DNA from: Vicinamibacterales bacterium
GTDB lineage: Bacteria > Acidobacteriota > Vicinamibacteria > Vicinamibacterales > 2-12-FULL-66-21
Length of the DNA: 64,000 nt
Direction: 5' to 3'
Assembly (NCBI GenBank): GCA_035492775.1
Contig: DATJIW010000097.1
Coordinates: forward strand, 2,500 to 66,499
A program made the translations under genes and the position numbers. Below, piece after piece: positions 59,025 to 63,632 of the stretch (position 1 is the stretch's first letter; each line of letters begins with the position of its first letter). The notes below the pieces were generated by a model. That model saw nothing but the letters and a program-made list of their open reading frames with translations. It searched no databases and was not told the DNA's origin.

Positions 59025-59504
59025 GTGAACGACCAATTTGCCGGAATTGTCCTTTGTCTGCTCGTGCTGGGTGCCGTGGTCTTGATCGGAATGGCACTCC
59101 GAGGCCGCCAGCGCCTGCGCGAATTCGCAGTCCGCGAGCGAATCGCGATGATCGAGCGCGGATTGATGCCCCCTCCGGAGGTCGATCCGGAGCGTTTCGA
59201 CCGGGGACTACTCCTCGCCGCCGCGTTGCAGCGCGCGTCGAATCCAAAGGGGACGCGTTACCGTTCGATGGGTGTGATGCTGATGGGGCTTGGCGGGGCG
59301 TTGTTCATGCTCCTGGCCTTCGCCGGCGGGATCATGGACATCGCCTTTGGTGTGGCCGGCGGCGTCATCGTGCTCGGATTGGCCGCCTACATCAACGGCA
59401 TTCTGGTATCCAATGACGTTCCAACGCCTGTCAGCGCTCCTCCGCCCCGACCGGCGGCACCGGCTGCGGCGGTCGTCCAACCGCCGGACAACGTCGCCCC
59501 ATAG
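59025..59504 (+). CDS. Hypothetical membrane protein (3 TM, Pro-rich tail)
   Basis: AGGAGG RBS and GTG start. One N-terminal TM segment, an RERIAMIERGLMPPP helix, then two more TM segments. Confidence 0.6.
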   Translation: MNDQFAGIVLCLLVLGAVVLIGMALRGRQRLREFAVRERIAMIERGLMPPPEVDPERFDRGLLLAAALQRASNPKGTRYRSMGVMLMGLGGALFMLLAFAGGIMDIAFGVAGGVIVLGLAAYINGILVSNDVPTPVSAPPPRPAAPAAAVVQPPDNVAP

Positions 59505-59624
59505 CTGTGCCTTTTTTCGTGTCGTGTATCACGGGCTACTCACTTGGCTGGCGGACGAGGTAACGAACTCCACAAAACCCACGTAAAACGTCGTTATTGC
59601 GCCGCCGAGCGGCTGACTTTCAGG

Positions 59625-59640
59625 TGGCACCCACGTTGCT
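59625..59640 (+). promoter_or_regulatory. Consensus sigma-54 promoter TGGCAC-N5-TTGCT
   Basis: Exact TGGCAC (59625-30) and TTGC (59636-39) at canonical spacing, in a 284-nt gap between convergent genes. No ORF lies downstream. Confidence 0.6.
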
Positions 59641-59650
59641 CTAGGTAAGG

Positions 59651-59780
59651 GCGTCCGGTCACGAAAGCGGCCGGGCCTACCGCTCCGGCGTTCCGCCAGG
59701 GCAACCGCCCCGCCACCACACCCTGCCAACAGGCTGCAGGGAGCGTCTTCGGACCTCCCTGTCCTGCCATCCTTTCCTGA
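59651..59780 (+). ncRNA. Candidate sigma-54-dependent small RNA (boundaries approximate)
   Basis: Predicted +1 about 59651, with no ATG or GTG ORF in the segment. GAAA-capped hairpin at 59655-59674, GGCG-UUC-CGCC at 59687-59697, and a 14-bp UUCG-capped hairpin at 59730-59766 followed by CCUUUCCU. Confidence 0.4.
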
Positions 59781-59788
59781 ATTGGCGC

Positions 59789-60694
59789 TCAGATCCGCGG
59801 CGCGGGCGCGGCGGGAATCTCCTCTGGACGATGGCGTCGCAATCGCGCGTTGGCGGCTGTGACTTCGACGCCATAGAGGAATAGAACGGCGCACGTATAC
59901 ACCCAGACGAGGAACACCACGACCGCCGCTATCGAGCCGTGGACGTTCGTCAACCGATCCATGCTGACGCGCAGATACCACGAGAAACCGAACAGCGCAC
60001 CGCGCCACAGCAGACCCGTGACGACGGCGCCCACCCAGACGTCACGAAAACGCACTTCCGCATTCGGGACGAAGTAGAAGATGAGGCCCACGACGAGGAT
60101 GAACACCACCGTGCTGCCGATCTTCACCGCGATGTTCTGCAGGACTGTGAGCGCGGGCGTTCGCACGAGGACGACGGCGAACCAGCGCGCCTCGATCACG
60201 TTGATGGCGCTGACCAGCAGCAGACCGCCGAGCAGCAGCACGCTGGCGGCGATCAGCATCAGGAGCGCGATCAGCTTGTGGCGGAAGTAGCTCGGTTGTT
60301 TCTCGACGCCCCACGCGTGGTTCACCGCGGACGTGATCGCGCTGAACACGCCCATGGCCGCCCAGATCATCACCACGCTTCCGGCGACGCCCAGCCGGAG
60401 CCTGGCCTGTTGCAGCGCGTCGAGCTGCGCGGTGACGAACTCAAAGTGTCTCGGGAAGTAGCGCAGCACGAAGCCGAGGATCTCGGCGCGATCGCCGACG
60501 TCGACAGTGACGCTACCGAGGATGGAGAACGCGAGAAGGAAGAAGGGAAAGAGCGACAGCAGCGCGTAGTAGGCGATGGAGGACGCGAAGGTGAGGTCGT
60601 TGGACTGGTAGATGCCGACCACACCGCGCCAGATGGCGAGACCCGTCAGACGAATCTCGCCTCGGATACGTGAGGCCGTGCGCCGCCCGTCCAC
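59789..60694 (-). CDS. YihY/BrkB (ribonuclease BN-like) family membrane protein
   Basis: LTFASSIAYYALLSLFPFFLL and six TM segments typical of YihY. Confidence 0.85.
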   Translation of the reverse strand: MDGRRTASRIRGEIRLTGLAIWRGVVGIYQSNDLTFASSIAYYALLSLFPFFLLAFSILGSVTVDVGDRAEILGFVLRYFPRHFEFVTAQLDALQQARLRLGVAGSVVMIWAAMGVFSAITSAVNHAWGVEKQPSYFRHKLIALLMLIAASVLLLGGLLLVSAINVIEARWFAVVLVRTPALTVLQNIAVKIGSTVVFILVVGLIFYFVPNAEVRFRDVWVGAVVTGLLWRGALFGFSWYLRVSMDRLTNVHGSIAAVVVFLVWVYTCAVLFLYGVEVTAANARLRRHRPEEIPAAPAPRI

Positions 60695-60706
60695 GGCCCG
60701 ATGATA

Positions 60707-60907
60707 TCAACCCCTGTGGCCGCTCAGCTCCCAGGCGCGACGGGCTTCGCCGACCGCCCAGGCGGCCAGCGGCCCGCGCGCCCACGAGCGCGCGAGCTGC
60801 CACGCCAGGACGCGCAGCCGCGGCGTACGGAGCACCGCATACGCAGCGCTCACTGCCGCCGCCACCATCACGACGTTCGCCGTCGTGCGCGCCTGCTGTT
60901 CCGTCAT
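60707..60907 (-). CDS. Small membrane protein
   Basis: ATG 60907 lies 10 nt after the upstream stop, and the protein has one TM segment (VVMVAAAVSAAYAVL). No family recognised. Confidence 0.4.
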   Translation of the reverse strand: MTEQQARTTANVVMVAAAVSAAYAVLRTPRLRVLAWQLARSWARGPLAAWAVGEARRAWELSGHRG

Positions 60908-60917
60908 CGCGTCGCCG

Positions 60918-61322
60918 TCAGCGCGTTCCCCCCGGCGTGCTCGTCGAACCGAGGTCACGATTGTGCGTGCCGCCCGTGCTGCCGGATGTGCTGCTTCCGG
61001 AATTGGACGTCGACGCTCCGCTCGTGCCCGTCGTGCCGGTGGCGCCCGAAGCCATGCTGCTCACGCTGGAGCGGGCCCGGTCGTACGCGTCGCGGCCACG
61101 GTCCACCATCTGGCTGACCTTGTCAGACGCCTGCTGATACGTATCGCCAGCCGTCGAGCGCAGCTTCCCCGCCGACTCGCCAAGCTGGGACCGCAGTTCG
61201 GATCCCGCCTTCGGCGCGAACAACATGCCGAGCCCCGCGCCTAGTACCGTGCCCGCCAGCAGCCCCATCAGGAACGAGCCGCCGCCTTCTTCCCGCTCAT
61301 AGCGATCGTATTCGTATGCCAT
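60918..61322 (-). CDS. YtxH-domain protein with Ser/Thr/Gly-rich tail
   Basis: GGAGG RBS and ATG 61322. FLMGLLAGTVLGAGLGMLFAPKAGSELRSQL is the YtxH signature. Confidence 0.7.
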   Translation of the reverse strand: MAYEYDRYEREEGGGSFLMGLLAGTVLGAGLGMLFAPKAGSELRSQLGESAGKLRSTAGDTYQQASDKVSQMVDRGRDAYDRARSSVSSMASGATGTTGTSGASTSNSGSSTSGSTGGTHNRDLGSTSTPGGTR

Positions 61323-61393
61323 GCAACCTCCTTGAATCCGTTCGTCGTCCGTCATCCGAGAGCCCGCCTCGCCGAAGCCAGGGGCGAAGCCGG

Positions 61394-61774
61394 TCACGCC
61401 TGCTGCAGCACCGACATGATCGCCGCGCGGACGCCGCGCACGATCCCGACGGCCTGGTAGACCTTGTCGCGCACGGACGACCGCATCCGATCAGCCGTCT
61501 CATCCACTCGGTCGAAAGTGCCGGTAATGGCCTGGTCCACGCGCTCCGTCTGCTGGCTCACGCGTGCGGTAATCGACTGGACATCTGCAAGGATCGCGTC
61601 GACTTTGCGCCGCAGCGGCACGATCTCACGCAGCTCGAGGTCCGCCACGAACTGCATCGCCCGGCGGTATGCCATGAAACCCGCAATCCCAACGCCGATG
61701 AGCAGCAACGCCTCGAGTACGCTCACCGCCGCCATGACGCCCAGCAGCACGTTGGTCGTGTGGAGATCCGCCAC
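61394..61774 (-). CDS. DUF948-like membrane-anchored coiled-coil protein
   Basis: N-terminal TM followed by a helical region, in the same operon as the YtxH genes. Confidence 0.6.
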   Translation of the reverse strand: MADLHTTNVLLGVMAAVSVLEALLLIGVGIAGFMAYRRAMQFVADLELREIVPLRRKVDAILADVQSITARVSQQTERVDQAITGTFDRVDETADRMRSSVRDKVYQAVGIVRGVRAAIMSVLQQA

Positions 61775-61786
61775 TACTGGCCTCCT

Positions 61787-62050
61787 TTAAGCCGACCAGC
61801 GGCCCTGCGCGGCGCCGGGCAGCGTGCCGCCCGTAATGTCACCGAGCGAGCGCCAGCCTTCATTCGCCGCCGTTCGTGCCTTCTCGACCGTTCCCCTCAA
61901 CGCATGCATTTCGCGGATGAAATCGTCGAGCTTGGGTTCAATCTGGCTTCGCACACGCCGTCCCTGCTCGGTCAGATACAGCCAGCCCCAGATGCCGCCG
62001 GCGGCGGCGCCGAGCACGGTAGCCAGCAATACACGCGATCGCTCTTCCAC
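61787..62050 (-). CDS. YtxH-like small membrane protein
   Basis: GGAGG-N6-GTG at 62050, TM VLLATVLGAAAGGIWGWLYL, then a helical region. The ORF opens at GTG 62104, which would coincide with the predicted sigma-54 +1. Confidence 0.55.
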   Translation of the reverse strand: MEERSRVLLATVLGAAAGGIWGWLYLTEQGRRVRSQIEPKLDDFIREMHALRGTVEKARTAANEGWRSLGDITGGTLPGAAQGRWSA

Positions 62051-62113
62051 GTCGCCCTCCTTCAACACTGCGGCGCCAGGAATGCGCGCACGCATCGCAA
62101 ACACATCCGATGT

Positions 62114-62129
62114 ATCAAACCGTGTGCCA
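62114..62129 (-). promoter_or_regulatory. Sigma-54-like promoter TGGCAC-N5-TTGAT
   Basis: The minus strand reads GTGGCACACGGTTTGAT, with exact -24 and -12 GA rather than GC. It lies 30 nt after the terminator of the EBP gene and about 65 nt before GTG 62050. Confidence 0.4.
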
Positions 62130-62158
62130 CGGCTTTCTCTCTAGCTGATACGGCTGTA

Positions 62159-62197
62159 AACACGAAACGGGACGCAAAATGCGTCCCGTTTCGTGTT
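62159..62197 (-). terminator. Perfect 17-bp hairpin AACACGAAACGGGACGC-AAAAT-GCGTCCCGTTTCGTGTT
   Basis: Lies 35 nt downstream of the EBP stop (62232) and is followed on the minus strand by UUUACAG. Confidence 0.6.
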
Positions 62198-62231: not shown

Positions 62232-63632
62232 TCAAACGGTCGCCGGCCGGCGGCCGGCGGCCTTGGCGCCGTCCTGGATCTCGTGTTTCTTCATCTTGCT
62301 GTACAAAGTCGGCCGATAGAGCCCGAGGATCTGCGCCGCTTCCTGTTTGTTCCAGTTCGTCCGCTGCAGCGTCTGCAGAATGGCCATCCGCTCGATCTCC
62401 GCCAACGTGCGGTGTGGCGGGATCACGAATTCCGTCGTCGTCGTACTCTCGGTGCGCAGCGACTCCGGAAGGTCATTGACGGTAATCTCCTGCCCTTTCG
62501 CCACCAACACGCCGCGCTCGATGACGTTTTCCAGCTCACGAACATTTCCAGGCCAGCGATGACGAATCAGCACGTGATACGCCGCAGGCGCGATCGACTT
62601 GACGTTGCGCTGGTGCCGCTGACGGTACTTCTCGAGAAAGTGCTCGCACAGCAGCGGAATGTCCTCGGTGCGCTCCCGCAGCGGCGGGACGCGCAGCGTG
62701 ATCGTATTGATGCGGAAGTAGAGGTCCTCGCGGACCTTCCCGTCGCGGAGCGCGGCGTCCAGATCGATGTTCGTCGCGCAGATCAACCGGAAGTCCACGC
62801 GCACGATCCGGTCGCTCCCGATCGGCCGGTATTCGCGCTCCTGCAGCACACGCAGCAGCTTCGTCTGCAGGTACGGCGGCATTTCGCCGATCTCGTCGAG
62901 CAGCAGCGATCCGCCTTCGGCCATCTCGAAGAGGCCTTCCTTGTCGGTCGCCGCGCCCGTGAACGCGCCCTTCTTGTAGCCGAACAGCTCTGACTCGATG
63001 AGATCCTTCGGGATCGCCGCACAGTTGATCTTGATGAACGGCCCCTTCGCCCGCTTCGAGTTGTAATGGATCGCGTTGGCGATGAGCTCCTTGCCGGTCC
63101 CGTTCTCGCCCTGGATCAGGATGTTGGCGTCGCTGCCCGCAACGCTCTCCACCAGCTCGAGCACCTCGTGCATCTTCTTGCTCTTGCCGATGATGTTGCC
63201 GAACCGGAACTGCCCTTCCAGCTTCTGTTTGAGCAGCAGGTTCTCGCCGACGAGATCGCGCCGCTCGATCGCCCGCTCGAGCATCGCGAGCAGCGTGTCG
63301 GGCTCGATCGGTTTCTCGACGAAGCTGTGCGCCCCGGCCTTCATTGCTTCGACGGCCTTCGGCACACTGCCGTGGCCCGTGATGACGATGACCTCGGTGT
63401 CGGCGTGGGTCTGCTTGAACCGGCGAAGCAGCTCGAGGCCGTCGACGTCCGGGAGCATCATGTCCGTGATGGCGACGTCGGGCTTCCAGGTCTTGAAGAT
63501 CTCGTCGCCCCGGGTGCCAATCATTGCCGTTCGGACTTCGTACCCTTCGTGCTCGAGCAGGATCTTCAGCCACTCGATCATCGCGGGCTCGTCGTCCACC
63601 GCGAGGACGCGATATTTCTTTTTCATCGTCAT
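62232..63632 (-). CDS. Sigma-54-dependent Fis-family response regulator (NtrC-type enhancer-binding protein)
   Basis: Receiver motifs (VLAVDDEP, DVAITDMMLPD), AAA+ motifs (GENGTGKE, GAFTGA, LLLDEIGEM, RVDFRLICATN, WPGNVRELEN), and a C-terminal Fis HTH. Confidence 0.93.
   Translation of the reverse strand: MTMKKKYRVLAVDDEPAMIEWLKILLEHEGYEVRTAMIGTRGDEIFKTWKPDVAITDMMLPDVDGLELLRRFKQTHADTEVIVITGHGSVPKAVEAMKAGAHSFVEKPIEPDTLLAMLERAIERRDLVGENLLLKQKLEGQFRFGNIIGKSKKMHEVLELVESVAGSDANILIQGENGTGKELIANAIHYNSKRAKGPFIKINCAAIPKDLIESELFGYKKGAFTGAATDKEGLFEMAEGGSLLLDEIGEMPPYLQTKLLRVLQEREYRPIGSDRIVRVDFRLICATNIDLDAALRDGKVREDLYFRINTITLRVPPLRERTEDIPLLCEHFLEKYRQRHQRNVKSIAPAAYHVLIRHRWPGNVRELENVIERGVLVAKGQEITVNDLPESLRTESTTTTEFVIPPHRTLAEIERMAILQTLQRTNWNKQEAAQILGLYRPTLYSKMKKHEIQDGAKAAGRRPATV

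Follow-up and report, generated by a model that had tools for sequence, protein, structure and literature searches.

In the Proteobacteria, the small RNAs (sRNAs) GlmY, CrcZ/CrcY and NrsZ are transcribed from sigma-54 promoters that are activated by NtrC-family response regulators at upstream repeats, and CrcZ provides a precedent for RNAs that titrate a protein. The Qrr RNAs pair with ribosome-binding sites and feed back on luxO. Pairing with G-rich Shine-Dalgarno-like sequences is found for Qrr and for many C-rich sRNAs. In the myxobacterial sRNA Pxr, an 8-bp segment in the stem of the last stem-loop, SL3, is needed for the RNA to accumulate. Acidobacteriota rank with the most abundant bacteria of soil, yet hardly any regulatory RNA of this phylum is known to us; in the library of papers covered, full-text searches for Acidobacteria or Vicinamibacter together with sigma-54-dependent or similar sRNAs found no paper. 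Here we describe an element in a 64-kb stretch of a genome belonging to the order Vicinamibacterales (class Vicinamibacteria, phylum Acidobacteriota), in the following called the window. The element occupies the gap at 59505–59788 between two convergent open reading frames (ORFs), 59025–59504 on the plus strand and 59789–60694 on the minus strand. This gap very probably holds an independent gene for a structured non-coding RNA that is transcribed from a sigma-54 promoter, with the RNA ends predicted from the sequence. The following features were assigned within the gap.

59524–59543, plus strand: upstream activator-type palindrome GTGTATCACGGGCTACTCAC (also given as GTGTnnCnCGnGCTACAC), 101 nt before the TGGCAC box, located with a position-weight matrix
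59557–59573, plus strand: possible second, weaker related site GAGGTAACGAACTCCAC, recognized by eye and carrying no statistical score
59625–59640, plus strand: sigma-54 (−24/−12) promoter TGGCAC-CCACG-TTGCT, in full TGGCACCCACGTTGCT, an exact consensus conserved in homologues
59651–59777, plus strand: small non-coding RNA of ~127 nt (long form), ends predicted
59653–59676, plus strand: H1, 5′ hairpin of ~10 bp with a GAAA loop at 59663–59666, variable in sequence and assigned by covariation
59682–59702, plus strand: H2, GCUC-C-GGC / loop GUUCC / GCC-A-GGGC, the most conserved hairpin
59703–59731, plus strand: C-rich single-stranded linker AACCGCCCCGCCACCACACCCUGCCAACA, unpaired in the consensus structure, candidate seed region
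59732–59768, plus strand: H3, GGC-U-GCAGGGAG-C-GUC / UUCG / GAC-CUCCCUGU-CCU-GCC, core CAGGGAG/CUCCCUG, loop at 59748–59751
to ~59777, plus strand: short tail, AUGUAC in most relatives, where conservation ends

The original prediction, made from the letters of the window alone, had named the exact TGGCAC-N5-TTGCT at 59625–59640 as the sole perfect sigma-54 site in the window. A mismatch scan of the 64 kb bears this out, as TGGCACN5TTGC is matched without mismatch at this position alone. The site has GG at −24 and GC at −12 in exact spacing (TGGCAC-N5-TTGCW), and with the C of the GC box (59639) taken as position −12, the predicted transcriptional start (+1) falls at ~59651. The −24/−12 boxes are present in the homologous loci as well. 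All 46 covariance-model matches of the first rounds are preceded by TGGCAY-N5-TTGCT, 45 of them match at least 10 of the 11 specified bases, and ten of these copies had been found by routes that did not require the promoter. Among the 46 copies the N5 spacer is variable but the distance from promoter to RNA is fixed, the promoter starting ~150 nt before the RNA 3′ end, or ~131 nt in short forms of the RNA. Sites with at most one mismatch to TGGCACN5TTGC number 13 in the window versus 4.0 expected from shuffles; for most of these near-consensus sites, the next 250 nt downstream contain no ORF equipped with a Shine-Dalgarno sequence.

The RNA itself was followed with a covariance model of the RNA part alone, R1, built from 35 sequences and comprising 129 positions and 31 pairs. 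In the window R1 has a single match, at 59649–59777 with 124.4 bits; with one copy in 64 kb, and the same syntenic junction each time, the element is not a dispersed repeat. The scores are bimodal, with true copies at 67–130 bits and everything else at ~20 bits. We identified at least 73 distinct copies, all of them in metagenome-assembled genomes (MAGs) of Acidobacteriota/Vicinamibacterales. The starting set consisted of relatives of the YihY gene (yihY) from a species-genome collection, yielding 11 acidobacterial loci (YihY identity 66–91%) labelled Vicinamibacterales or Acidobacteriota gp6. Each of the 11 has TGGCAY-N5-TTGCT and then a homologous RNA ending with GCAGGGAG-loop-CUCCCUG. In addition, 185,579 species genomes were scanned with two exact patterns, one anchored in H3 and the other combining the promoter with the H2 loop and leaving H3 out, and 28 of the 73 copies were found with the pattern that does not contain H3. 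These scans returned no cultured species carrying the RNA. Long-read genomes with the RNA include those of contigs CAVRXL010000013, CAWJYM010000005, CAVYTI010000008 and CAVSUB010000013. Pattern matches from other phyla fail the covariance model. A loose first pattern, GCTGCAGGGAG-N9-11-CTCCCTG, was rejected: among the matches listed were chance hairpins from many phyla, all of which failed the model. One sequence nearly identical to locus L001 lies on a short contig binned as Gemmatimonadaceae (L095); it is probably mis-binned and is kept outside the 73.

Two variations in copy number and form were recognized. Tandem double copies, each with its own promoter, occur in L014, L057, L067, L165 and L177. 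A short form without H1 is found in at least six copies (L002, L003, L004, L006, and the second copies of L057 and L067). Comparison with Rfam 15 (4227 models), which had been suggested along with the original prediction, showed that no family matches the element: there was no match in 59300–60000 at E-values up to 10, the gathering thresholds gave only tRNA elsewhere in the whole window and nothing over the element, and five homologous loci had no match at E-values up to 1. Each refuting condition of the original prediction that sequence data can address came out in favour of that prediction. The RNA family is new, real and well supported; its kind is known, but it is new as a family and new for the phylum.

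Covariation backs the conserved secondary structure, a trait of trans-encoded sRNAs. In the alignment of 73 sequences, standard pairs make up 95.2% of the cells, versus 37–47% if the pairing partners are slid by one to three columns. Double-sided changes affect 15 pairs and 125 cells; a test for covariation in orthologous loci had been suggested along with the original prediction. None of 500 column shuffles reached any of the observed structure measures, and the 38-sequence set agrees with these results. The three hairpins of the original prediction are all real, with limits refined to those listed above, the GGCG/CGCC stem described there being the inner part of H2; as a correction to it, H3 has no U-run behind it.

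The three hairpins differ in how they are conserved. H1 holds most of the covariation, with compensatory changes in nine of its ten pairs. When the 5′ segments were folded singly, almost every long form gave a hairpin, the stems and loops being of many kinds, and over all 73 copies these folds have a median of 10 bp and a median z of −2.6. RNAalifold on a plain MAFFT alignment, hence independently of the model, predicted H2 and H3. It missed H1 because that alignment had misaligned it, and realignment with the model as well as single folding recovered H1. In H2, 99.4% of the cells are paired, three pairs show compensatory changes, and the GUUCC loop is nearly invariant. All 73 copies have an identical H3 core, CAGGGAG/CUCCCUG, next to an inner stem that covaries. 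Between H2 and H3, the linker has a mean unpaired probability of 0.5–0.75 over the 73 sequences in the thermodynamic ensemble; its length ranges from 25 to 32 nt, and AACC and CC..CC positions are conserved. An alternative hairpin formed by CCUGCC of the linker and the 5′ arm of H3 was dropped, since the variants CCUACC, CCCGCC and CCCCCC are uncompensated. The tail is U-richer in some lineages (CUUGUCUUGU).

Folding of the 138-nt segment from 59651 yields −60.3 kcal/mol, better than shuffles (z = −2.8). The ORF list for the gap contains no plus-strand ORF of at least 30 amino acids starting after 59651, in agreement with the earlier claim that the segment beyond this point is free of ORFs. 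No ORF is conserved in the homologues on either strand, and the minus-strand ORFs that run across the gap are likewise not conserved. A terminator scan gave no call on the plus strand, the final hairpin being without a U-run. With its own promoter, an intergenic position and no conserved ORF, the element shows three of the properties of a trans-encoded sRNA.

Upstream of the promoter, the palindrome at 59524–59543 has a matrix score of 23.2, the best in the 64 kb, with the runner-up at 15.1. Its consensus among the loci is GTGTnnCnCGnGCTACnCAC. By expectation-maximisation the motif reached 14.6 bits on the real upstream regions versus at most 8.3 bits for shuffled sets, and in 33 of the 40 loci used for training its score exceeds the 99th percentile of shuffles. 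In 26 loci outside the training set, ten of the 15 matches scoring at least 15 fell within −175 to −55 of the sRNA promoter, a zone making up 0.85% of the sequence searched, and three of the five high-scoring matches outside this zone are the same palindromes on the opposite strand. The sites cluster at ~−80, −100 and −133 relative to the promoter. These steps correspond to about two and three helical turns, which would fit an enhancer that must face the promoter. The palindrome is a putative binding site of an enhancer-binding protein; at −101, it lies at the distance of ~80–150 bp typical of sigma-54 enhancers. A second site resembling GAGGTAACGCGCTACCAC was seen by eye in L001–L004, L006, L026, L071, L106 and L126.

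At the level of sequence, the enhancer, the sigma-54 promoter and the structured RNA form a three-part module that evolves as one unit. For the genomic context, the following neighbouring features are relevant.

59025–59504, plus strand: DUF6249-like membrane protein of 159 amino acids, with a weak DUF6249 match below the Pfam cut-off
59789–60694, minus strand: gene of a YihY/BrkB family protein (yihY), assigned by domain match
59789–62129, minus strand: syntenic cluster of a ytxH-like gene, orf126, a second ytxH-like gene and yihY, supported by tblastn synteny in ~60 loci
62129–62115, minus strand: sigma-54-like box TGGCAC-N5-TTTGAT upstream of the first ytxH-like gene, with a non-canonical −12 element (TTGA or ATGG, not TTGC)
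62232–63632, minus strand: NtrC-family response-regulator enhancer-binding protein, candidate activator, with Response_reg, Sigma54_activat and HTH_8 domains

According to tblastn in ~70 loci, the order is activator, ytxH-like gene, orf126, ytxH-like gene, yihY, sRNA and then the DUF6249-like gene, beyond which follow genes for an extracytoplasmic function (ECF) sigma factor, a putative anti-sigma factor, an ABC-2 permease and RecQ. The sRNA lies at the same syntenic junction in all loci but a divergent subgroup (L025, L032, L033 and L038), which has a different context without yihY nearby. Its orientation at the junction varies. Within the starting set, the module of L005, L007, L008 and L010 (and of L011, identical to L010) is located in the gap between the DUF6249-like gene and yihY but inverted relative to the window, and in L001–L004, L006 and L009 it lies 1–3.5 kb from yihY with another gene in between. 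A peptidase or oxidoreductase gene is inserted between the sRNA and yihY in some loci. Enhancer, promoter and RNA are flipped as a block in L005, L007–L010, L026 and L034 compared to the window. Because the module is inverted or relocated among the 11 loci, its hairpins are not terminators of the flanking genes and the promoter match is not due to chance; an origin of the hairpins as 3′ ends of the flanking mRNAs is excluded, as both module orientation and neighbours change between genomes. The original prediction had also found no gene for the promoter to drive. In the window and in most loci the gene that comes next runs toward the element, and none of the downstream genes is conserved, which argues for an independent gene.

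The junction shows further rearrangements. yihY itself is flipped in L161 and L177, and local inversions are frequent here. Tandem repeats with units of 5–7 nt (GGTTCYA, GAACGCC/GACCGCC, CCTAAAG, CAATCTC) occur in several MAGs, located just 3′ of the sRNA in L007, L008 and L010, upstream of the sRNA promoter in L032 and L094, and upstream of the ytxH box in L141. One MAG contains two copies of the region from the activator gene to the sRNA, L009 (DATAFJ010000027) and L010 (DATAFJ010000031), meaning either that the island is duplicated or that the bin mixes two strains. The YihY protein of the window had no match in an exact look-up.

The protein encoded at 62232–63632 had been taken for an NtrC-type activator, and its domains agree with this assignment, so that an enhancer-binding protein is encoded in the genome. 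It scores below the cut-off of every NCBIfam equivalog and is best described as a generic NtrC-family response regulator. Wherever a locus reaches that far, the orthologous gene comes first in the ytxH-yihY cluster; the orthologues share 80–99% amino-acid identity, versus 66–91% for the neighbouring YihY. We observed the activator gene in the window and in L001, L005, L133, L145, L166, L196 and L214; the protein of the window matched only JGI metagenome contigs, and JGI samples containing this organism include 3300060918, 3300061539 and 3300060805. On the single readable upstream flank (L217), there is no histidine kinase gene beside it. A TGGCGC-N5-TTGCT box upstream of the activator gene in L005, L008 and L010 hints at autoregulation. 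A long and perfect inverted repeat, AACACGAAACGGGACGCA-TTT-TGCGTCCCGTTTCGTGTT, fills 62150–62190 on the minus strand, in the interval from the ytxH box to the activator gene, and is probably the terminator of the latter.

The sigma-54-like box at 62129–62115 is probably the promoter of the ytxH-orf126-ytxH-yihY cluster. In the form TGGCAC-N5-TTTGAT or TATGGA it is kept in 21 of 21 loci examined, ~55–65 nt before a strong AAGGAGG ribosome-binding site, and the ytxH-like gene that follows has its true start at ~62050 and its stop at 61787 on the minus strand.

From these observations we propose the following course of events. An enhancer-binding protein, for which the NtrC-type regulator encoded at 62232–63632 would be the likeliest candidate in view of its conserved linkage, may bind the palindrome at 59524–59543 and switch on sigma-54 RNA polymerase at the −24/−12 promoter. 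The predicted product is a structured RNA ending at or just after H3, as conservation, covariation and the lack of an ORF indicate. By analogy with described sRNAs, it would act in trans as the post-transcriptional arm of a sigma-54 response, the C-rich linker and/or the GUUCC loop pairing with target mRNAs in their G-rich ribosome-binding regions. The ends of the RNA may be protected by H1 and H3, with H3 serving as terminator or stability element. Local genes use an AAGGAGG Shine-Dalgarno-like sequence, the G-rich type of partner that such a linker would require. By comparison with known sRNAs, we consider base-pairing in trans the likeliest role, but a tentative proposal whose chances only come close to even.

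Several observations weigh against parts of this scheme. The covariation was counted in an alignment fitted to the model. The last hairpin, H3, has no U-run behind it and gave no call in the terminator scan, so the RNA lacks a recognizable Rho-independent terminator. When the linker was scanned for duplexes with 194 crude ORF starts in the window, the result was long GC-rich duplexes, probably at spurious ORFs, which are uninformative about targets. In 23 loci, the conserved ytxH leader paired with its cognate sRNA no better than shuffled leaders did (mean z = +0.65). By eye, the start regions of the activator genes show no obvious conserved complement to the linker. Since only 64 kb of the genome were searched, finding no target is expected. 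A search for the palindrome of the sRNA in the region upstream of the ytxH box at 62129–62115 did not find it, so that co-regulation by the adjacent activator is a conjecture. Finally, the near-invariant H2 and the invariant H3 core exceed what a seed and a terminator need, and may point to a protein partner. For this reason a protein-binding mode is kept as the main rival of base-pairing.

In this alternative the RNA is real and sigma-54-driven but binds or titrates a protein, as CrcZ and RsmZ do, with H2, H3 and the CYGCC motifs as recognition sites. In its favour, all 73 copies share the same H3 core and much of H2, against a freely covarying H1; the linker and the 3′ arm contain three to five repetitions of CCGCC, CCUGCC and CYGCC-like motifs; and there is no detectable mRNA target nearby. 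On the other hand, the locus has no linked gene for a candidate RNA-binding protein, the CYGCC repeats are short and may reflect the GC-rich composition, and invariant stems are known from a base-pairing sRNA too, as the conserved SL3 segment of Pxr demonstrates. We consider titration unlikely. Somewhat less probable still is a more specific version, in which the RNA would not be a conventional base-pairing sRNA but one half of a new RNA-protein pair specific to Vicinamibacterales and H2, H3 and the CYGCC motifs would titrate an RNA-binding regulator within an envelope/desiccation stress island. The island would consist of ytxH-yihY beside the ECF sigma/anti-sigma pair, and the RNA, as part of it, would be switched on by a sigma-54 activator. 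If true, this pair would act as a gatekeeper, in the manner of Pxr, for a stress or dormancy programme of one of the most abundant soil lineages.

Other explanations were weighed as well. In the window, 11 nt separate the 3′ end of the RNA from the yihY stop codon, the two are convergent there and in most loci, and without a U-run after H3 read-through into yihY is conceivable, all of which would suit a promoter driving an antisense or interfering transcript against yihY. We nevertheless judge this very unlikely, because the module is co-directional with yihY in L005, L007–L010, L026 and L034, lies 1–3.5 kb away with other genes between in many loci, has no yihY nearby in L025, L032, L033 and L038, and loses its conservation right after H3. 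A cis-acting 5′ leader, such as a riboswitch or attenuator of a downstream gene, could be imagined for L001, where a co-directional oxidoreductase gene follows the element, and a small-protein gene could be suspected since high GC content produces long stop-free stretches. Both notions are highly improbable. The next gene is convergent in the window and most loci and none is conserved downstream; an ATG or GTG ORF of at least 15 amino acids exists in only 39 of 73 copies, these ORFs differ from one another and none is shared; and the indels (linker 25–32 nt) are not multiples of three, with substitutions that keep base pairs. Gene callers leave the gap empty in L216. As near-consensus sigma-54 sites are common in the window (13 at no more than one mismatch), a chance promoter match beside ordinary terminator hairpins of the two flanking genes also had to be considered. 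Promoter, spacing, RNA and palindrome are conserved together in 73 copies regardless of the orientation of the flanks, and these comparative data refute a chance match, to which we assign next to no weight.

An independent sRNA gene under a sigma-54 promoter would extend the sigma-54-dependent sRNAs, so far found in Proteobacteria and myxobacteria, to a third phylum. The whole module can be read from the sequence, from the enhancer site through the sigma-54 promoter to a structured RNA with long and short paralogues. The copies, at least 73, form a ready seed alignment for a new RNA family and a testable entry into the sigma-54 signalling of an uncultured order.

Among the known systems, Pxr and Qrr are the closest analogues, and the RNA is homologous to neither. 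GlmY, CrcZ and NrsZ show no similarity in sequence or structure to it (no Rfam match); the A-rich CA motifs of CrcZ are missing from this RNA, and it shows no GlmZ-like partner. Qrr1–5 of Vibrio, which depend on LuxO and sigma-54, resemble it in having one to several copies per genome and in combining several stem-loops with a conserved single-stranded region. Qrr, the functional paradigm, are sigma-54 sRNAs activated by a response regulator, and the RNA described here likewise has a sigma-54 promoter and a response regulator as candidate activator. The enhancer motif of Qrr is different, and no Rfam match to Qrr was obtained.

Pxr of Myxococcus xanthus and other myxobacteria shares more features with this RNA. 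Both are ~110–130 nt long and C-rich with three stem-loops, have an enhancer-binding region upstream of a predicted sigma-54 promoter, lie near a gene for a sigma-54-dependent response regulator (in the case of Pxr, nla19/pxrR), occur as tandem paralogues each with its own sigma-54 promoter, and contain an invariant stem segment of ~8 bp in the last stem-loop. Homology was rejected, as a comparison by eye with the loop region of SL1 (CCCCCCACCCC) and the core of SL3, in segments reconstructed from the published probe and primers, revealed no similarity. Apart from the phylum, the two differ in the terminator, a classic GC hairpin with U-run in Pxr and a hairpin without U-run here; in the first stem-loop, which is conserved and functional in Pxr whereas H1 is variable and sometimes absent; and in the activator gene, directly adjacent in Pxr but 2.5–6 kb away across the ytxH-yihY cluster in the present case. 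By analogy, the parallel with the Pxr architecture suggests that an enhancer-binding protein and an sRNA were paired convergently.

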